NCBI GenBank assembly: GCA_964644035.1
Contig: CAZXUH010000001.1
Coordinates: 195,712 to 259,711, forward strand
Length of the DNA: 64,000 bases
Source: an uncultured Candidatus Saccharibacteria bacterium
GTDB taxonomy: Bacteria; Patescibacteriota; Minisyncoccia; Phycocordibacterales; DAORIS01
Reading direction: 5' to 3'
Shown: one piece after another, positions 4,381 through 24,839 of the stretch
Layout of the letters: every line of letters starts with the position of its first letter
Numbering within the stretch: the first letter of the stretch is position 1
The notes under the pieces: generated by a model
What the model saw: the letters and a program-made list of their open reading frames with translations, nothing else
Database searches by the model: none
What the model was told of the DNA's origin: nothing
Position numbers and translations under genes: made by a program

Positions 4381-5346
4381 ATGAAACAGATCGTGGCAGT
4401 ATTGCGTGGTGGACCATCGAGTCAGTACGCGCAATCTCTAGAAACCGGCGGATATGTGTTGAAACATTTGCCGGAGCGATACACTGGCCGCGATATATTT
4501 ATTTCTACTGACGGCGCATGGCATGTCGATGGTTTGCAGGTAAAACCTCAGCAAGCACTTGAGCGAGCAGATATTGTCTGGAATGCATTACAAGGTGAGT
4601 ATGGAGAAGATGGTAAAGTGCAGCGCATACTATTTAATAGTGGTATTCCATATACTGGATCCAATCCTGTTGCATCGGCATTGTCCATGAATAAAAAACT
4701 TTCTAAAAAAGCATTTGCCGATGAGGGTATTAGGACACCCATGCATATTATTGTTGAGCAAGGGGATGATCTCAACAATCACGCTCAGCATATTTTCTTT
4801 AACTTTCACATGCCGGTGGTGATAAAACCGACCAATTCTGGCAATTCTATCGGTGTGTCTATTGCTCGCGCTCGTGGTGATATCATTCCTCAGCTCGAAG
4901 AGGCACTTCGTATTTCAAATACAGTGTTGGTAGAAGCATATATTCCTGGCAAAGATATAGTCTGCATTGTTGTTGAAAATCTGCGCGATCAGGAACACTA
5001 CGTGCCGATTCCGATTGAGATCAGATACGCTGCTGGTCATGATATTTTTCATACAGCGCTCAAACAAGACAAGAGTATGATTCACCATGAAGCCATGCAT
5101 TTGATAGACAAGGTTAAAAATGAAATTGCGCATATCGCAAAAGCAGCACATAGAGTGCTGGGACTCAGTCATTATTCACGTTCGGACATGCGTATTACGC
5201 CGACAAATAAGATATATCTGCTTGAGACAAATACTACGCCAATCTTGCACGATCAGTCGGCGACGATACAGTCACTTCGATCTGTGGGAATCGAGCCAAA
5301 AGCCTTTATAGATCACATGATTTCTCTTGCGCTAAAGGGCAATTAA
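4381..5346 (+). CDS. ddl: D-alanine--D-alanine ligase (ATP-grasp)
   Basis: MKQIVAVLRGGPSSQYAQSLETG N-terminus and ATP-grasp body typical of Ddl; TATAAT at 4366-4371 upstream of ATG 4381. Confidence 0.85.
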   Translation: MKQIVAVLRGGPSSQYAQSLETGGYVLKHLPERYTGRDIFISTDGAWHVDGLQVKPQQALERADIVWNALQGEYGEDGKVQRILFNSGIPYTGSNPVASALSMNKKLSKKAFADEGIRTPMHIIVEQGDDLNNHAQHIFFNFHMPVVIKPTNSGNSIGVSIARARGDIIPQLEEALRISNTVLVEAYIPGKDIVCIVVENLRDQEHYVPIPIEIRYAAGHDIFHTALKQDKSMIHHEAMHLIDKVKNEIAHIAKAAHRVLGLSHYSRSDMRITPTNKIYLLETNTTPILHDQSATIQSLRSVGIEPKAFIDHMISLALKGN

Positions 5347-17348: not shown

Positions 17349-18473
17349 ATGGCATTATCAATCGGCATCGTCGGTCTTCCAAACGTCGGTAAATCGACCC
17401 TTTTCAACGCTCTTACAAAAAAGAGTGTCCTTGCTGCCAACTATCCTTTTGCAACTATTGATCCTTCTGTTGGAGTAGTCGCTGTCCCCGACGATCGGTT
17501 GTGGAAGCTCTCTTCATTTTCAAAATCAGTAAAAACTGTCCCTGCTGCAGTAGAATTTGTCGATATTGCAGGTTTGGTCAAAGGTGCATCAGAAGGCGAA
17601 GGTTTGGGCAATCAATTTTTGCAAAACATCAGAGAAACAGACGCAATTGCTGAGGTGGTGCGTATTTTTGAAGATGACAATATCATTCATGTCGACAATA
17701 AGATCGACCCCCTCAAAGATATTGAGGTGATCAATCTCGAACTCATTCTTGCTGATATGCAGACGATTACCAAGCGTATCAATAACATTCAAAAGGAAGT
17801 AAAGCAGGCTAAAAAAGAGGCTATTATCGAAGAAGCAGGATTAAAGAAAATACAGGTGGCGCTTGAAGCTGGACAACTTGCTCGAACAGCAGCACTCACA
17901 GAATTTGAAATTCCTTTTATAAAGAATATGCATTTGCTGACCATGAAGCCTATTTTGTATGTGCTCAATAAAAAGGGTGGTGGTAAAAATCTAGATGAAA
18001 TAAATGATGAACGATACAAAAAACTGATTGAATTTATAAAACAATCAGGTGCTGGCTATGTAGTAGTCGATGCTCGCATTGAGGAAGAACTCAAAGATTT
18101 CGAAGGGGTAGAAAAAAATGAATTTAGAAAAGAGTTAATGGGAGGGGACTTGTCCGACGAAGCCTTGGCGAAGTCGGATGGGGTAGATCATCTGATCAAA
18201 GCAGGATACGACCTGCTTGGTCTTATAACCTATTTCACAACTGGAGAAGACGAATCACGTGCATGGACTATTAGAAAAGGTTGGACAGCGCCATTGGCTG
18301 GAACAGCGATACATACTGATTTCAAAGATAAATTTGTCAGGGCTGAAGTAGTAGAGTGGGACAAACTTCTCGAAGCTGGTTCATATGGCAATGCTCGGGA
18401 AAAAGGTCTCGTTCGTACTGAAGGCAAGGAGTATATCGTCAAAGACGGCGACGTAATTGAATTTAAAATTTAG
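17349..18473 (+). CDS. ychF: Ribosome-binding ATPase YchF (Obg-like ATPase)
   Basis: MALSIGIVGLPNVGKSTLFNALT.. G1 motif, TGS C-terminal domain. Confidence 0.9.
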   Translation: MALSIGIVGLPNVGKSTLFNALTKKSVLAANYPFATIDPSVGVVAVPDDRLWKLSSFSKSVKTVPAAVEFVDIAGLVKGASEGEGLGNQFLQNIRETDAIAEVVRIFEDDNIIHVDNKIDPLKDIEVINLELILADMQTITKRINNIQKEVKQAKKEAIIEEAGLKKIQVALEAGQLARTAALTEFEIPFIKNMHLLTMKPILYVLNKKGGGKNLDEINDERYKKLIEFIKQSGAGYVVVDARIEEELKDFEGVEKNEFRKELMGGDLSDEALAKSDGVDHLIKAGYDLLGLITYFTTGEDESRAWTIRKGWTAPLAGTAIHTDFKDKFVRAEVVEWDKLLEAGSYGNAREKGLVRTEGKEYIVKDGDVIEFKI

Positions 18474-18633
18474 ATATAAAAAATCCTCCAGAGGTAGACC
18501 TCACGGAGGGGTTGAACGTAGAAGTTCCACGTTGTAGTTGACTGTTGAGGTCACTGTTGGCGTTGAACGTCGCAGTTCGAAGTTGTTGTGGGCACCGAAC
18601 TCATGTCCAGGCTCGAATACTATAACAAGAGCA

Positions 18634-18700
18634 TCAGAATCTGTCAAGTAACGAAGATGGTGGTGCGATAGAGTAGAGAATCTAGGCAGAAAAAAAGCCG
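18634..18700 (+). repeat. A-repeat copy 1 (~65 nt; core GGTGGTGCGATAGAGT followed by A-run and GCC)
   Basis: ~80% identical to copy 2 at 18833-18899; core shared with copy 3 at 20186-20217. Confidence 0.5.
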
Positions 18701-18832
18701 CAATATCCTGTAAACAAGACATCCGGCTGAGGGATTGGCCGCTGAGGCCCGAAGCAGATCTTACCTGAGTGAGCCGCTAAAGGCTGACTAGATACTATAC
18801 CTGTTGCAACTGAAAATATCATAGCAAACTAA

Positions 18833-18899
18833 CCAAAATCTGTCAAATTACAAGATGGTAGTGCTATAGAGTTTGAGATTTAGGTAAGAAAAAAGCCCG
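18833..18899 (+). repeat. A-repeat copy 2 (core GGTAGTGCTATAGAGT)
   Basis: Direct repeat of 18634-18700, about 200 nt upstream of gene 19108. Confidence 0.5.
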
Positions 18900-19107
18900 T
18901 TGGTCTGCGAAACAGCAGTGAACCAACGGGCGTCGCCGAAAAATGAACATTAACCCAAGCACATGGCGAGGGTGATAACAGTGTAGCACGTATATACTTT
19001 ATGTCAAATACTTTGTTGACATGCTATCCTTAGAGTGTTATTTTGCTGCCTAGATACCAGTATTGTACTGGCAGCTAATTCTCAAACACACATGAAAGGA
19101 TTGTTTT

Positions 19108-19668
19108 ATGGATTTGCGAGAATTTTGGAACCTCGTTGAGAAGTACCCTTGGCTGGTGCGTGCGGTTATCATCGGATCAAGTTGGGGGAAAATCGATGAG
19201 GAGTACAGAACTCAGCCCTCTCTGTTTGGTGACTGGTTCAAACCAAGTGCCATCAGAAGCGGCGTAAAACAAATTCGTTTCAGGCAATGGAATAAACTGG
19301 ATTTGCATGCTTTACCATCCACACGTGAACGTCGGGTAGAAAATGCAGGTCGTATTGTAGATACAACCACTTCGGTTGAATATCATTGCTACTCTCATGG
19401 ATTTGACATGGGTCAATTTAGCGACTGTACATATAGCATGGCCGGCGGCGGACAAGCAAAAAGGGATGGTGTTGGGGAGTGGACAGTCCAGAACATGATT
19501 GATTTCGTTCATGAAAATGGAGGGCTTGTTGATGCAATCATCAAAGAAACAACCCAGCATGTGCAACGGTTCAAGACCACCAACGGCATAGAAAAGGCGA
19601 AATCAATGGGGGAACGGACAGTTAAGTCATTCGACATCTTTCTTTCTCCCGACACAAATTCTACTTAA
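19108..19668 (+). CDS. Unknown cytoplasmic protein (186 aa), first gene of a two-gene unit
   Basis: Long ORF, SD GAAAGGA; no recognisable motif. Confidence 0.5.
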   Translation: MDLREFWNLVEKYPWLVRAVIIGSSWGKIDEEYRTQPSLFGDWFKPSAIRSGVKQIRFRQWNKLDLHALPSTRERRVENAGRIVDTTTSVEYHCYSHGFDMGQFSDCTYSMAGGGQAKRDGVGEWTVQNMIDFVHENGGLVDAIIKETTQHVQRFKTTNGIEKAKSMGERTVKSFDIFLSPDTNST

Positions 19669-19679
19669 CAGGAGGTTCT

Positions 19680-20111
19680 ATGGAAACAGTTGGGGATTTA
19701 GAATTCTGGTTCCACAACAGGTTTTGGCTACTTGTTCTTGTTATCACTCTCATCATTCTGACAATAAGAATGACCTTCTACAAACATTCACGGTCACAAA
19801 AAGCTTGGATGTTTGTAGCTATGCTGATCTTGATTCTTGGATCAGTAGCACTTTCGTTCAGTGTAGGTCGCGGTAGAATCGGAAAACCAACAGATATTGA
19901 GTCTATGCGAGACACGGTGAAGTTCGAAGTCTTTGGTGTTGTAGAACACCAAGGGAGATATTTTACTGTTATCAAGCTGGAAGATGGTGAATACCGTTGT
20001 CTCAATTACGGTCGGAAATTTTCTCCCGGCAAATACAGATATGATTGGACTGTGCCACCGTTGGACGATGACTACGATGAAGATTTTGAGATAGGTACAA
20101 CAGGCAAGTAA
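19680..20111 (+). CDS. Unknown membrane protein (two N-terminal TM helices plus ~80-aa C-domain with acidic tail)
   Basis: Perfect SD AGGAGG; starts 12 nt after gene 19108; hydrophobic segments LLVLVITLIILTI and FVAMLILILGSVALSF. Confidence 0.5.
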   Translation: METVGDLEFWFHNRFWLLVLVITLIILTIRMTFYKHSRSQKAWMFVAMLILILGSVALSFSVGRGRIGKPTDIESMRDTVKFEVFGVVEHQGRYFTVIKLEDGEYRCLNYGRKFSPGKYRYDWTVPPLDDDYDEDFEIGTTGK

Positions 20112-20121
20112 ATATTCTCAG

Positions 20122-20155
20122 ACCCCGAACCGAAAGGAACGGGGTTTTATTTTTA
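20122..20155 (+). terminator. Rho-independent terminator R1a (CCCCGAACCGAAAGGAACGGGGTTTTATTTTTA)
   Basis: Hairpin plus T-run; 33-nt sequence repeated identically at 20903-20936. Confidence 0.6.
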
Positions 20156-20156
20156 G

Positions 20157-20188
20157 TTAAAAAAGACCCCTCAACACGAGTTGAAGGG
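20157..20188 (-). terminator. R2a hairpin (AAAAGACCCCTCAACACGAGTTGAAGGG); reads as a terminator with T-run on the minus strand
   Basis: Related copy at 21088-21117. Confidence 0.4.
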
Positions 20189-20217
20189 TGGTGGTACGAT
20201 AGAGTCTAGGATTTAGG
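20186..20217 (+). repeat. A-repeat copy 3 (core GGTGGTACGATAGAGT), immediately upstream of gene 20271
   Basis: 13-14 of 16 core matches to copies 1 and 2. Confidence 0.45.
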
Positions 20218-20270
20218 GATTGACGGATAGGTCTTTAGATGTTACTTTCTTGATTAGAAAGGAACTGCTC

Positions 20271-20894
20271 ATGGAAATAATTAGTAAAAAGTTCTCTTAT
20301 CTTCGATGGTATAGTAGCGCAGAACGAAGTGAATTCAACACAGGAGACCTGCTCATTGATTGGAAAAACCTTTACAAAAAGTTCTTTGGTTTCGATACTG
20401 ACTTCACAGGGCTTAAAATTCCTGAGAAAAAGGATGGTTTCGATCGCCTTATCATTGTCGCCAAGGGAGCTTCCCCGGACTGTGTGTACAAGGCATGTCG
20501 GAAGCTTTTCCGGTGCTTTCGCTACACTGAAGACTTTGACGGCACAACAAGAGGTTGGAATGATCGAGAAGCAAATAATACTTATGCTATCTGGGCTAGG
20601 GATAACCCCGAAGCAGATAAACAGAACAGCAATATCTCTGCTCGTGTTCTCAAAAAACGTGGCGGTACATACATCACTCTAGCCGAGCGTATGTTGTACG
20701 AAATGAAGTACTTCTTAGAAACAGGTGAACACATGGATACAAAAGGAACTTACACTATGTGTCTTGGTTCACGTCGATCGAACGGGGACATCCCATATGT
20801 TTATCGAAATCCAACTATGTATGTAATGTACATCAACTGGTACCATTCGACCGGTCGATGTTCTGATATTCGTGCTCGTGAAGTAGTTTGCTGA
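20271..20894 (+). CDS. Unknown protein (~207 aa; the ORF could also start at 20220)
   Basis: Long ORF with Cys/Tyr/Trp-rich composition; SD AAAGGA before ATG 20271. Confidence 0.45.
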   Translation: MEIISKKFSYLRWYSSAERSEFNTGDLLIDWKNLYKKFFGFDTDFTGLKIPEKKDGFDRLIIVAKGASPDCVYKACRKLFRCFRYTEDFDGTTRGWNDREANNTYAIWARDNPEADKQNSNISARVLKKRGGTYITLAERMLYEMKYFLETGEHMDTKGTYTMCLGSRRSNGDIPYVYRNPTMYVMYINWYHSTGRCSDIRAREVVC

Positions 20895-20902
20895 TCTTAC
20901 CC

Positions 20903-20936
20903 CCCCCGAACCGAAAGGAACGGGGTTTTATTTTTA
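20903..20936 (+). terminator. Rho-independent terminator R1b, identical copy of R1a
   Basis: CCCCGAACCGAAAGGAACGGGGTTTTATTTTTA. Confidence 0.6.
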
Positions 20937-21087
20937 TCAAATTTTGGTATAAAAAAACCGGCAACACTCATTGAGCATTTCCGGATTTAACTGAGGCAAA
21001 TTGCAGGTGGCAAGGGCTAGAGATTACTAGCCGAGCAGGAAGGCACTAATTCCTATCTAATATAACAAAATACTAAGTATTGTCAAT

Positions 21088-21117
21088 AAAAAGACCCCTC
21101 GACAACGAGTCGAGGGG
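21088..21117 (-). terminator. R2b hairpin (CCCCTCGAC AACGA GTCGAGGGG); on the minus strand it is followed by TCTTTTTATT
   Basis: 9-bp perfect stem; T-run only in minus orientation. Confidence 0.45.
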
Positions 21118-21241
21118 CTTCTGGCACGGCCACCAAATGGTGGGACGCGATGCAAAATCGATATGGCGCGCGATACTGTAGAGCTGTTGATTAGCGTAAC
21201 AACTTTGATACAATTTAGCAATAACAACATAATATAAAAAT

Positions 21242-21820
21242 ATGGATCTCAATCAGATGCAAAAGCCGGAACAGTATCGTGGCAATCAATCATGGATACT
21301 CAAATGGTCACTTATCATCGCATTGGTCATCGTTCTCAACCTTTTCTTCAACTACGCACTCTCTCTTGTCTATCCAGCTCCAAAATACGAAGCATATTGT
21401 CCTACGGAGCAGGTAATCAATCCTCCTACCACCAGCGCTAAGTGTGTAGAAGTAGGCGGACAGTGGACTCAAAATACATATCCAAAAGTAGATTCAAACG
21501 GTGAAGTAATCGCTCCTCAAGTGCAAGGTTACTGCAATCCTACATTTACCTGTCAGAAAGACTACGATGCGGTCAGAAAGGTATATGAAAGAAATGTATT
21601 TGTGATTCTTGTCGTACTAGGCGTTGTCTCAATCGCTGTCGGTATGATGCTCAAGGCAGTAGATGTTGTTTCTATTGGATTGTCATTTGGTGGTGTCATC
21701 TCTCTTATTATTGCTTCAATGAGATATTGGTCTGAAGCAGAAAATATTCTCAAGGTTATTATTCTTGGTGTTGCTCTGGTAGTGCTCATCTGGCTTGGAA
21801 TCAAGAGATTCAAGAACTAA
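21242..21820 (+). CDS. Membrane protein with Cys-containing extracytoplasmic region and three TM helices
   Basis: TM segments at N- and C-terminal halves; own terminator. Confidence 0.5.
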   Translation: MDLNQMQKPEQYRGNQSWILKWSLIIALVIVLNLFFNYALSLVYPAPKYEAYCPTEQVINPPTTSAKCVEVGGQWTQNTYPKVDSNGEVIAPQVQGYCNPTFTCQKDYDAVRKVYERNVFVILVVLGVVSIAVGMMLKAVDVVSIGLSFGGVISLIIASMRYWSEAENILKVIILGVALVVLIWLGIKRFKN

Positions 21821-22205: not shown

Positions 22206-24839
22206 ATGAAACCCTACGATCATAAAAAAATCGAGAAGAAATGGCCAACCTTCGTTAAAGCTACGGCTGGCAAGCAGAAAGAATACAATCACAAAATCAT
22301 TGAACCTAAGTGGCAAAAAAAATGGGAAAAACAGAAACTCAATAGGGCATCAGACACCTCCAAACAACCGAAGTTCTATGCATTGGATATGTTCCCCTAT
22401 CCTTCAGGAGAAGGACTTCATGTAGGGCATCCTAAAGGCTATATAGCGACAGATATAGTATCTCGTATGAAGAAGATGCAAGGTTTCAATATCTTACATC
22501 CAATGGGTTTTGATGCGTTTGGATTGCCAGCTGAAAATTACGCAATTAAGACTAAAACAAATCCTCAAATAGCCGTTAAAAAGAATATTAAACACTACAA
22601 AGATCAATTAAGTGTTTTGGGATTTAACTATGATTGGTCAAGAGAAATAAATACAACTGATCCTAAATACTACAAATGGACTCAGTGGATATTTTTACAA
22701 TTACTAAAGCAGGGTAATGCTTATGAATCTTATGAAGAAATAGATTGGTGTCCAAAAGATAAAACAGGATTAGCCAAAGAGGATATAGAAAACGGTAAGT
22801 GTGAGCGTTGTGGGACACCAATTGAAAAGAAACTCCTTAAACAGTGGGTGTTGAAAATTACTGATTATGCTGAACGCCTACTTACCGATCTTGATGTAAA
22901 AGATAAGGACGGTAAATATCTTATTGATTGGCCTGAGTCAATAAAAGAGTCTCAAAGAAATTGGATTGGAAAAAGCGAAGGATCTCAAATTGATTTTGCT
23001 TTAAACTTTATTAAAGATCCTTCAGTAAATAAAAATAAAGGTCCTGACGGGAAAGCTGCTCATATTTCAGTATTTACTACACGAGCAGACACACTTTTTG
23101 GTGTTACATATCTTGTATTAGCTCCAGAACATTTGTGGGTAAAATTAGCAACCGATGATACTCATAATGTTCTTGAAAATAAGGAGGAAGTTAAAAAATA
23201 TATTGAAAGCATAAAAAATAAAACTGAAATTGAGAGAACTACGGATAGCAAAGAGAAGACTGGGGTTGAGTTAAAGGGTGTAAAAGCAATAAATCCAGTA
23301 AATGGGGAAGAAATTCCTATGTTTGTTGCTGATTATGTATTAGCCAATTATGGTACGGGTGCAGTTATGGCTGTTCCAGCTCACGATGAAAGAGATTTTC
23401 AATTTGCTAAAAAATATAATCTTGATATTAAACCTGTAATTAGAGCTGAAGATCAAACAATATTACTTAATAATTCTGACCAGCATCTAATTAATACTCT
23501 TAATAAAGAGAATGCGATTTATTCTCCTGCGATGTCCGCAGTTTCTACTGGTTACAAACAACAACCTACTACAGGATATGGAATACTGATGAATTCTTCA
23601 AAATTTGATGGATTGGATTCAGAAAAAGCTAAGAAAGAAATTACTGAATTTGCTGGTGGAAAGATGGTAACAAAATATAAACTTCGCGATTGGGTATTTT
23701 CTCGTCAGAGATACTGGGGAGAACCTATACCAGTAATTCATTGTGAAAAGTGTGGAATCGTACCAGTTCCTGAAAAAGATTTGCCTGTGTTACTTCCTAA
23801 AGTTAAATATTACGAACCAACAGGAACAGGAGAATCTCCACTTGCAGCAATAGAAAAGTGGGTAAATGTTAAGTGTCCAAAATGTAAAGGTAAAGCTAAG
23901 AGGGAAACAAACACCATGCCTCAATGGGCAGGTTCTTCTTGGTATTATTTAAGATATATTGATCCAAAAAACAAGAAAGCACTTGTTGATCCTAAAAAGG
24001 AGAAAGAAATGATGCCAGTAGATTTGTATGTGGGTGGAGCAGAACATGCAACTCGCCATCTTATTTACGCACGATTTTGGCATAAATTTTTATTTGATAT
24101 TGGGGTTGTGTCGGGAGTCGAACCGTTTAAAAAACTTCAGAGTGTCGGATTGATCCTAGCCAAAGATGGTCAGAAAATGAGCAAACGGTGGGGTAATGTA
24201 GTTAATCCCGATGAAGTAGTCTCATTATATGGGGCAGATTCTCTTAGACTTTACGAAATGTTTATGGGACCTTTCGATCAGCCAATTGCTTGGGATACAA
24301 ATAATATAATTGGTGTAAGGAGATTCTTGGAAAAGATTTGGAGACTTTCAGAAAAAATAGAAAATAAACCTGCCGATGAAGTACTCGAAACTTCGCTTCA
24401 AAAGGCAATTAAAAAAGTATCGGCCGATATTGAATCAATGCAATTCAATACTGCAGTTTCGACACTCATGATCTTTTCTAATGATTTAGAAAAAGCAGCT
24501 TTTGTACCCAAAGCTACCTATCAAACTCTCTTGCAGCTTTTGGCGCCGTTTGCACCCCATATTGCCGACGAATTGTGGTCAAAATTGGGTCATAAGAAGT
24601 CTATCCATATCGAGTCTTGGCCTCAATTTGACCCAACAAAGGTCGTGGAGAGTCAAATGAAGATAATCATTCAGATCAATGGCAAGGTCAGGGGAGACGT
24701 AACCGTTGCAGTCAATATCTCTGAGCAGGATATCAAAAATATGGCTCTAGGTATGGATTTTGTGAAGAAATGGGTAGAGGGGCAGGAGATTAAAAAGGTC
24801 ATTTATATCAAGGATAGGCTCATAAACATTGTGGTCTAA
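22206..24839 (+). CDS. leuS: Leucyl-tRNA synthetase
   Basis: HIGH motif (HVGHPKGY), KMSKR-type motif (KMSKRWGNV), CP1 editing and Zn-binding CxxC pairs. Confidence 0.93.
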   Translation: MKPYDHKKIEKKWPTFVKATAGKQKEYNHKIIEPKWQKKWEKQKLNRASDTSKQPKFYALDMFPYPSGEGLHVGHPKGYIATDIVSRMKKMQGFNILHPMGFDAFGLPAENYAIKTKTNPQIAVKKNIKHYKDQLSVLGFNYDWSREINTTDPKYYKWTQWIFLQLLKQGNAYESYEEIDWCPKDKTGLAKEDIENGKCERCGTPIEKKLLKQWVLKITDYAERLLTDLDVKDKDGKYLIDWPESIKESQRNWIGKSEGSQIDFALNFIKDPSVNKNKGPDGKAAHISVFTTRADTLFGVTYLVLAPEHLWVKLATDDTHNVLENKEEVKKYIESIKNKTEIERTTDSKEKTGVELKGVKAINPVNGEEIPMFVADYVLANYGTGAVMAVPAHDERDFQFAKKYNLDIKPVIRAEDQTILLNNSDQHLINTLNKENAIYSPAMSAVSTGYKQQPTTGYGILMNSSKFDGLDSEKAKKEITEFAGGKMVTKYKLRDWVFSRQRYWGEPIPVIHCEKCGIVPVPEKDLPVLLPKVKYYEPTGTGESPLAAIEKWVNVKCPKCKGKAKRETNTMPQWAGSSWYYLRYIDPKNKKALVDPKKEKEMMPVDLYVGGAEHATRHLIYARFWHKFLFDIGVVSGVEPFKKLQSVGLILAKDGQKMSKRWGNVVNPDEVVSLYGADSLRLYEMFMGPFDQPIAWDTNNIIGVRRFLEKIWRLSEKIENKPADEVLETSLQKAIKKVSADIESMQFNTAVSTLMIFSNDLEKAAFVPKATYQTLLQLLAPFAPHIADELWSKLGHKKSIHIESWPQFDPTKVVESQMKIIIQINGKVRGDVTVAVNISEQDIKNMALGMDFVKKWVEGQEIKKVIYIKDRLINIVV

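Follow-up and report, generated by a model that had tools for sequence, protein, structure and literature searches.

A modular island downstream of ychF in a Paceibacteria genome as a probable product of repeated site-specific integration

We describe an island of 2.8 kb in a 64-kb stretch of DNA (hereafter, the window) from an uncultured bacterium of the Paceibacteria group of the Patescibacteria (candidate phyla radiation, CPR), whose nearest YchF homologs, at ~75% identity, come from metagenome-assembled genomes labeled Taylorbacteria, Yonathbacteria, Paceibacterota or, loosely, Saccharibacteria. The island (18474-21241) extends from the stop codon of ychF, with its 3' limit at 18473, to a gene for a 192-aa membrane protein that begins at 21242; the start of leuS is at 22206. 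Most probably, the island accumulated as elements integrated repeatedly, and site-specifically, at the 3' end of ychF. By this reading, it is a recombination hotspot with mobile-element leftovers and not a new defense system. The original prediction, based on sequence inspection, had called it a duplicated or cassette-like accessory locus. It is accessory, modular, and variable, but its modules are not duplications of one cassette.

The evidence for integration begins with a repeat, termed A, that had been described as three copies of an element placed upstream of individual cassettes. The three copies are real. However, a fourth one is the genuine 3' end of ychF (18442-18487 as delimited by the repeat finder, family D1), and the repeat is most probably an attachment (att) site rather than a cassette-specific upstream element. 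Over ~33 bp, each copy reproduces the final 11 codons of ychF together with its stop codon, with the conserved block AAGATGGTrGTGnnATAGAGTTTAAGATTTAGG and a sharp left boundary at AAGATGG. The resident site A0 (plus strand, 18442-18475; attB/attL-like) encodes K-D-G-D-V-I-E-F-K-I-stop. The displaced plus-strand copies are A1 (18654-18687, AAGATGGTGGTGCGATAGAGTAGAGAATCTAGGC), A2 (18852-18885, in-frame Q-D-G-S-A-I-E-F-E-I-stop), and the degenerate A3 (20185-20218), which contains a 1-nt insertion. As repeat-finder blocks (18654-18699, 18852-18897, and 20185-20230), they are 63-76% identical. Aligned on the stop codon, A1 reads E-D-G-G-A-I-E-stop-R-I-stop and A3 reads K-G-G-G-T-I-E-S-R-I-stop, so that the in-frame pattern I-E-x-x-I-stop is common to the A0-A3 alignment. 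All att copies, in the window and in about 60 other loci, share the orientation of ychF.

The displaced copies are closer to the att copies of other organisms than to the ychF end beside which they lie. A1 is only 61% identical to A0, whereas its first 21 nt coincide with the attP copy of a phage (L127, 21/21) and 22 of 22 nt with a copy in another organism (L021); A3 and A1 are 83% identical over 29 nt. In the left half of the site, displaced copies bear GGTrGTG and genuine ychF ends, A0 included, bear GGnGAyGT. An independent profile built from 46 att copies, none of them from the window, was run across the 64 kb and recovered A2 (E = 5e-9) and A1 (E = 9e-5) and nothing else at a significant level, with A3 at E = 0.22.

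In public metagenomes, the core of the repeat accompanies recombinase genes. A core-pattern scan of metagenome contigs yielded 44 loci, and in 12 contigs (11 scan loci and L134, fetched separately) the core lies ~350 nt downstream of a tyrosine integrase gene. The integrases of the 11 scan loci (PF00589, E about 1e-26; 305-324 aa) are about 90% identical between contigs; according to NCBIfam they are Xer-like, below every equivalog cut-off, with a weak match to integron integrases (E = 4.5e-14). The core of this integrase-linked family reads AAGATGGTrGTGnnATAGAGTTTAAGATnTAr, and 10 of the 11 integrase-linked cores retain (K/R)(I/V)-stop in the ychF frame, as expected if integration must rebuild the C-terminus of YchF. 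Two contigs are right-hand junctions of an integrated element, with the orders integrase-core-membrane gene-leuS (L104) and integrase-core-leuS (L112). Another, L127, is a tailed temperate phage with the core as its attP; here, the integrase gene and the core are followed by genes for an exonuclease, NinB/Orf, a replication initiator, a DnaC-like loader, a DNA methylase, the large terminase (E = 1e-43), and the portal protein. On L134 the integrase is followed by a conserved arm, a core, and two further cores.

Two features of these elements deserve mention in their own right. The ~130 nt between the integrase stop codon and the att core (e.g., L128:8255-8388) are strongly conserved in L087, L090, L101, L104, L109, L112, L120, L122, L127, L128, and L134, and contain two hairpins with compensatory changes (one pair is UA in six sequences and CG in five) and G-U wobbles; this arm may act as a structured RNA 3' of the integrase gene or may comprise several arm sites. 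The integrase gene is invariably preceded, at a short distance, by a conserved 333-aa gene, p333 (L128:5716-6717, L087:1944-2945, L130:10899-11900, L134:8110-9111). It accompanies both of two integrase lineages, which share only 46% identity, and the p333 proteins are about 45% identical between them. With only a weak phosphoribosyltransferase-like match and no PHROG, p333 may be a recombination or replication partner.

Comparison with relatives shows the ychF end to be a variable site in a stable context. The gene order ychF, (membrane gene), leuS is kept across Paceibacteria. The site is empty in L009, L059, L065, and L070, with 59-91 nt from the ychF stop to the membrane gene, and L084, with 540 nt from ychF to leuS, was also counted as unoccupied. 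In other genomes, the gap downstream of ychF spans 0.5 to 5.8 kb and contains differing inserts at the same place. When the intergenic DNA was compared by BLAST with 80 related ychF loci, only the core block matched. A core at the ychF stop together with one to three further direct copies downstream was found in L006, L008, L012, L017, L021, L023, L024, L031, L039, and L068. About 21 of the 44 scan loci follow ychF, precede the membrane gene or leuS, or do both; their orientation is invariably that of ychF, and many form arrays of 2-4. In distant relatives, the larger gaps between ychF and leuS, considered as candidate integrase carriers, contain ordinary genes only (DUF5671, histidine kinase, ABC transporter, PPDK, and YceG) and no recombinase.

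Two unusual arrangements were seen among these loci. In L105:2511-3150 (identical to L113:13874-14513), three att cores occur away from ychF, between a divergent infB and a class-V aminotransferase gene, suggesting that the sites have undergone rearrangement or that a second docking place exists. In L036:1182-1246 and L114:1463-1522, an inverted partial copy comes immediately after the ychF end or att core, and the two make up a palindrome that surrounds the stop codon.

The most probable explanation is that a family of Paceibacteria elements with an Xer-like tyrosine integrase carries the ~33-bp core as a mimic of the ychF end. Its members include one or more tailed temperate phages as well as a ~10-kb element that bears a diversity-generating retroelement (DGR) and an SF3-type replication ATPase. 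Judging from the sequences, recombination would occur at the core: an exchange between the core and the ychF end would insert the element and rebuild an intact YchF C-terminus (…E-F-K-I-stop), while a hybrid copy of the site would be pushed downstream at each insertion, and repetition of this process would produce an array of direct repeats. Because the displaced copies carry the element-type left half and ychF the host-type one, the crossover probably falls in the right half of the core. The integrases and most of the element DNA would have been lost, or never present in the case of the smallest units. The remaining state would be A0, C1, A1, C2, A2, C3, A3, and C4, where C1-C4 are four att-delimited segments. 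These segments would be self-contained expression units, each with its own strong promoter and terminator, and four minus-strand units resembling small RNA genes would read towards ychF and terminate before reaching it.

Several observations weigh against this scenario. A tblastn search with the cognate integrases matched nothing in the 64 kb, and the called genes of about 22-44 kb include no recombinase domain; within this scope, the absence of a recombinase noticed originally holds. The conserved integrase-proximal arm was not found in the window either. Among the contigs, none holds a complete element with both junctions, and none represents the left prophage junction (ychF-core-phage early genes); tblastn with the L127 proteins matched no other locus. 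The core pattern gave no match in the IMG/VR viral collection. A3 is the weakest copy, given its poor score with the independent profile. No dyad symmetry is obvious in the core, and the placement of the crossover is an inference. No significant closing att copy precedes the membrane gene, so that no site marks where the array ends on the right; a candidate at about 21137-21197 was rejected, as its local alignment score equaled the shuffle and genomic nulls. Finally, C1 and C2 share only the core with the integrase elements, so that these two segments are no more than candidate remnants.

Some other interpretations of the repeat were considered and discarded. A DGR acting on ychF does not fit, since the differences between the A copies and the ychF end are not adenine-specific. 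A replication terminus or dif site is not indicated, as there is neither a GC-skew switch at the locus nor dif-like symmetry; the GC content of the island is not distinct from its surroundings. The minus-strand -35 hexamers do not appear to derive from ychF codons: the repeat block D4, which lies upstream of the core, aligns unconvincingly with ychF, and it was treated as cassette sequence because it recurs as a promoter in the cassettes of other organisms.

Between ychF and gene 1, the first gene of the island, lie 634 nt (18474-19107). They were initially reported as a non-coding stretch, and they indeed contain no credible open reading frame (ORF); yet inside them are two att copies and three strong minus-strand units composed of a promoter and a terminator. 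When sigma-70-like promoters are ranked by strength across the 64 kb, 5 of the top 10 fall within the island, 4 of them on the minus strand, and each minus-strand promoter is followed 85-135 nt further on by a hairpin with a T-run. Segment C1 (minus strand, 18476-18653, 179 nt) carries unit U1, with the promoter TTGACA-17-TATAGT at 18647-18619 (11/12 with TG) and a predicted ~135-nt RNA at about 18612-18478 (fold z = -2.25, terminal hairpin); its terminator hairpin and T-run abut the ychF stop codon. U1 also contains a 31-nt direct repeat (18508-18538 and 18559-18589; family D5) with 81% identity and a spacing of 51 nt, where the motif ACGTTCAAC occurs twice. Segment C2 (minus strand, 18688-18851, 164 nt) carries U2, with the promoter TTGACA-17-TATGAT at 18846-18818 and a predicted ~120-nt RNA at about 18811-18690, whose terminator abuts A1. 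The promoter blocks of C1 and C2 (family D4) share 70% identity, and the -35 hexamers of U1 and U2 are both 6 nt away from the next A copy.

The two larger segments are oriented on the plus strand. C3 (18886-20184, 1299 nt) comprises minus-strand U3, a plus-strand promoter, genes 1 and 2, and the terminator elements R1a and R2a. The U3 promoter (19007-18980) precedes a predicted ~85-nt RNA at about 18973-18890 (fold z = -3.63), with its terminator abutting A2; the plus-strand promoter at 19016-19044, divergent from U3, lies before gene 1. C4 (20219-21241, about 1 kb) comprises gene 3, R1b, minus-strand U4 (promoter 21086-21059, RNA about 21052-20950), R2b, and the native promoter region of the membrane-protein gene. 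Judging from their promoters and terminators, U1-U4 would be transcribed as small RNAs. A search of the non-coding parts against Rfam, at the gathering score and at E up to 10, revealed no family, and only a tRNA of the window reaches the gathering score; the best sub-threshold match for the units is RybB-like (21 bits vs. a cut-off of 40) and is driven by the terminator.

R1 and R2 are local terminator duplicates within the two larger segments, confined to this genome. The pairing of R1 noticed earlier holds: R1a (20123-20155) and R1b (20904-20936) are 33 nt long and 100% identical, with zero such pairs expected in shuffled sequences. R2 had been described as a GC-hairpin; its hairpins (R2a, 20160-20189; R2b, 21088-21118), preceded by an A-run, are terminators of the minus and not of the plus strand; the left end of A3 overlaps the 3' arm of R2a. 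The possibility that the repeats are generic genome-wide terminators does not hold, as A, R1, and R2 have no further good copy elsewhere in the 64 kb, R1 occurs in none of the 137 loci from other organisms, and R2 was likewise not found outside this genome. Logan assemblies of the same organism (L001, L002, L140-L142) begin or stop exactly at R1a or R1b, and the long contigs miss gene 3. These breaks are probably an assembly effect of the 33-nt identity, but may reflect a real deletion allele between R1a and R1b. All 7 contigs with the exact YchF of the window also contain gene 1, so that no polymorphism is visible.

The same design recurs in other organisms. The inter-site segments from all loci (n = 31) range from 104 to 1300 nt, with a median of about 370, and many consist of a promoter beside one site and a terminator beside the other, with a small ORF or a short RNA in between, in either polarity. 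None of the 31 segments is common to different arrays or organisms, identical ones being from the same population, and the cassette bodies of the window had no match among the loci fetched up to that comparison. A ~60-nt right end, 85-93% identical, is found in unrelated cassettes (L006:11370-11418, L092:1200-1253, L093:1395-1446, and L107:2505-2560). It is a plus-strand terminator hairpin, and its 3' arm (GAGAGGTGGG) is similar in sequence to the att core's left half (AAGATGGTGG).

Gene 3 (plus strand, 20271-20894, 207 aa, terminator R1b downstream) had been described as having no recognizable homology, whereas 20 homologous proteins place it in a family of DGR variable proteins. The closest of them (64-70% identity, 247 aa) are encoded on a conserved ~10-kb element with the order Zn-ribbon gene, gene-3 homolog, small gene, bAvd, reverse transcriptase, SF3-type AAA ATPase, Trp-repressor-like gene, p333, and integrase. 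On L134, it is this element that terminates in the arm and core described above. The last ~125 nt of the homologs, the variable repeat (VR), are matched by an inverted upstream copy, the template repeat (TR), e.g., L130:3591-3711 vs. 4672-4806 and L134:831-954 vs. 1918-2041. Mismatches between TR and VR are A-to-N in 52 of 53 cases (17/18 in L134, 11/11 in L130, and 12/12 in both L132 and L133). Since adenine-specific mismatches are the signature of DGR mutagenesis, the family is assigned to DGR variable proteins.

The gene in the window keeps the ribosome-binding site and start context of its homologs, while its N-terminal region is shorter. There is no second copy of the gene-3 end in the window that could serve as a template repeat, and the reverse transcriptase and Avd, present beside the homologs, are absent from the ORFs of the island; gene 3 is therefore an orphaned DGR target gene. 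Its AlphaFold (AF2) model has a predicted local distance difference test (pLDDT) score of 84.6, with no match to the C-type-lectin fold, no meaningful Foldseek TM-score against PDB, and no profile match to PDB sequences. A distant homolog (39%; L004:8001-8723) stands alone between rnc and rpsP on a 313-kb contig, with no reverse transcriptase or Avd among its called neighbors, and may be another orphaned copy. DGRs are reported to be common in CPR genomes and are among the features listed for them (PMC10221324). Like DGRs of the Bordetella phage BPP-1 Mtd type, the gene-3 homologs have a C-terminal VR/TR pair, bAvd, and a reverse transcriptase; unlike in that type, the TR of the homologs is upstream of the target and inverted, and gene 3 of the window has no TR, Avd, or reverse transcriptase.

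Genes 1 and 2 form a tightly coupled pair, as originally noted. Gene 1 (plus strand, 19108-19668, 186 aa) has the Shine-Dalgarno sequence AAAGGA, and gene 2 (plus strand, 19680-20111, 143 aa), with AGGAGG, follows after an 11-nt gap and encodes two hydrophobic segments, i.e., a protein with two transmembrane segments (2-TM). Of the three genes listed as unknowns, only gene 2 has no relatives: it retrieves only itself among 5.8 billion proteins, and the 143-aa gene found beside gene-3 homologs, considered as its counterpart, proved unrelated. Gene 1 has 28 remote relatives by exhaustive phmmer and none by k-mer search. They form a sparse family of ~180-aa proteins with invariant F6, W7, L64, H97, and D142. 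The AF2 model of gene 1 reaches a pLDDT of 91.4, with no meaningful Foldseek TM-score (PDB, BFVD) and no profile match to PDB sequences. One relative (42% identity) is located directly after ychF in another genome, and another between clpP and rny. Pfam, PHROGs, PADLOC, and NCBIfam gave nothing significant for genes 1-3.

These results bear on three alternative accounts of the island. The one closest to the accretion scenario, a variant rather than a strict rival, takes C1, C2, and perhaps C3 and C4 for bona fide mini-cassettes captured in an integron-like manner, each being a DNA circle that combines a single 33-bp core with a single promoter-gene-terminator unit; the Xer-like integrase of a phage or element, requiring no more than the core site, would insert and excise them in trans. 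We consider this possible but doubtful. The sizes of the segments agree with it, as does the fact that many of them are exactly one unit, in which a promoter lies 5-8 nt from one site, a terminator abuts the other, and a small ORF or a 60-130-nt RNA lies between them, in both polarities; they are unlike random fragments of phage genes. Promoter-bearing right ends recur across organisms, the ~60-nt right ends described above are common to otherwise unrelated cassettes, the integrase is short and Xer-like, and arrays follow the integrase element in L134. On the other hand, the lack of any cassette found in two arrays or organisms speaks against such capture, and no circles were observed. With a folding energy of 0 kcal/mol as single-stranded DNA, the core is unlike an integron attC in its folding, and the small cassettes do not have the structured ~130-nt arm, so they would be immobile if the arm is needed in cis. 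The broader proposal that the ychF-end site is a universal docking site for 100-1300 bp cassettes in Paceibacteria, exchanged in trans by Xer-like integrases that arrive with temperate phages and DGR-bearing elements, and the window array a live store rather than a graveyard, is equally tentative.

Local events could also be imagined, with the ychF end and a downstream convergent gene duplicated in tandem without any mobile element here, and the A block, along with the minus-strand promoter next to it, retained as an operator or upstream element controlling the small RNAs. Indeed, in C1 and C2 an A copy is just upstream of the minus-strand -35, where activator and UP sites lie, and the absence of both a local recombinase and polymorphism among the 7 contigs with the exact YchF would be in line with this. 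But many cores elsewhere have plus-strand promoters after them or none, and the bodies between copies are unrelated in sequence; together with the physical linkage of the core to integrase genes, a phage genome, and prophage-chromosome junctions, and with the better match of the window copies to elements than to their own ychF end, this makes local duplication extremely unlikely. It is also most unlikely that the three genes in repeat-flanked modules constitute a single undescribed system with a defense, addiction, or niche function, as the original prediction had ventured. Integration hotspots frequently gather defense genes, genes 1 and 2 are tightly coupled and unannotated, and gene 2 faintly matches the PADLOC models of 2TM effectors (E = 0.014-0.029). 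However, genes 1 and 2 are in a different att-delimited segment from gene 3, gene 3 belongs to a DGR, relatives of gene 1 occur without gene 2 or 3 and in unrelated contexts, and the empty results of the four family and defense searches lend such a system no support.

The accretion scenario has clear parallels among known systems. Lambdoid phage 21 and the element e14 use a tyrosine integrase to insert into the 3' end of icd; the element supplies a substitute end, and the displaced copy marks the far junction. The ychF site is similar in that the 3' end of a housekeeping gene is targeted, the gene is kept intact, and a copy of its end is displaced. It differs in the gene and the CPR host, in the ~33-bp mimic, the short Xer-like integrase, the stacked tandem sites, and the very small inserts. 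Another parallel is provided by ICESt1 and ICESt3 at the 3' end of fda in Streptococcus thermophilus, where integrative and conjugative elements (ICEs) and integrative and mobilizable elements (IMEs) form accretion arrays with cis-mobilizable elements (CIMEs). CIMEs, which lack a recombinase, may be mobilized, or left behind, by a related element with an integrase. Tandem att-flanked segments at a gene 3' end, some without recombination genes, are a common feature. But CIMEs are kilobases long and ICE-derived, whereas the units here go down to ~100-200 bp and to a single promoter-gene-terminator set, and neither of the elements linked to them, a phage and an element with a DGR, is conjugative.

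Integrons resemble the island in having ordered small single-gene cassettes between copies of one site, and a tyrosine recombinase of the Xer/integron-like branch. In contrast to integrons, there is no integrase/attI platform beside the array, which begins inside the coding end of ychF; the core is neither an imperfect palindrome nor a folding single-stranded DNA, and the cassettes have strong promoters of their own. Integrative mobile elements exploiting Xer (IMEX), such as CTX-phi, and the pdif modules of Acinetobacter plasmids rely on the XerC/D of the host and a dif-like 11-6-11 site. They share with the island small recombinase-less modules bounded by short sites and tandem arrays at one chromosomal site; here, by contrast, an element encodes the recombinase, and the site is a copy of the ychF end in which no dif architecture is evident. 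A pneumococcal prophage between dnaN and ychF uses a 14-bp site in the ychF promoter region, and its integration affects ychF (PMC6375853). That site also adjoins ychF, but in the promoter region and not at the coding 3' end, and both host and phage are unrelated to those considered here. Neither an att site at the coding end of ychF nor this element family in CPR was encountered in the literature library that was searched. Overall, gene-3'-end integration with a substitute end and tandem accretion of recombinase-less segments are established phenomena, and the tiny promoter-bearing cassettes are unusual.

For the window itself the message is modest: the island is most probably a recombination scar with cargo, not a new system, and a gene annotated as having no homology is explained as an orphaned gene for a hypervariable protein. 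For CPR bacteria, whose mobile elements and phages are poorly known because the hosts are almost never cultured, the locus provides (i) a sequence-defined att site, the ychF end, (ii) a cognate integrase family, and (iii) at least two types of elements. The att site ties phages to CPR hosts without CRISPR spacers, and the ychF end is a hotspot where accessory genes of minimal CPR genomes can be found systematically. The tiny promoter-bearing cassettes, if mobile, would represent a new flavor of cassette exchange.

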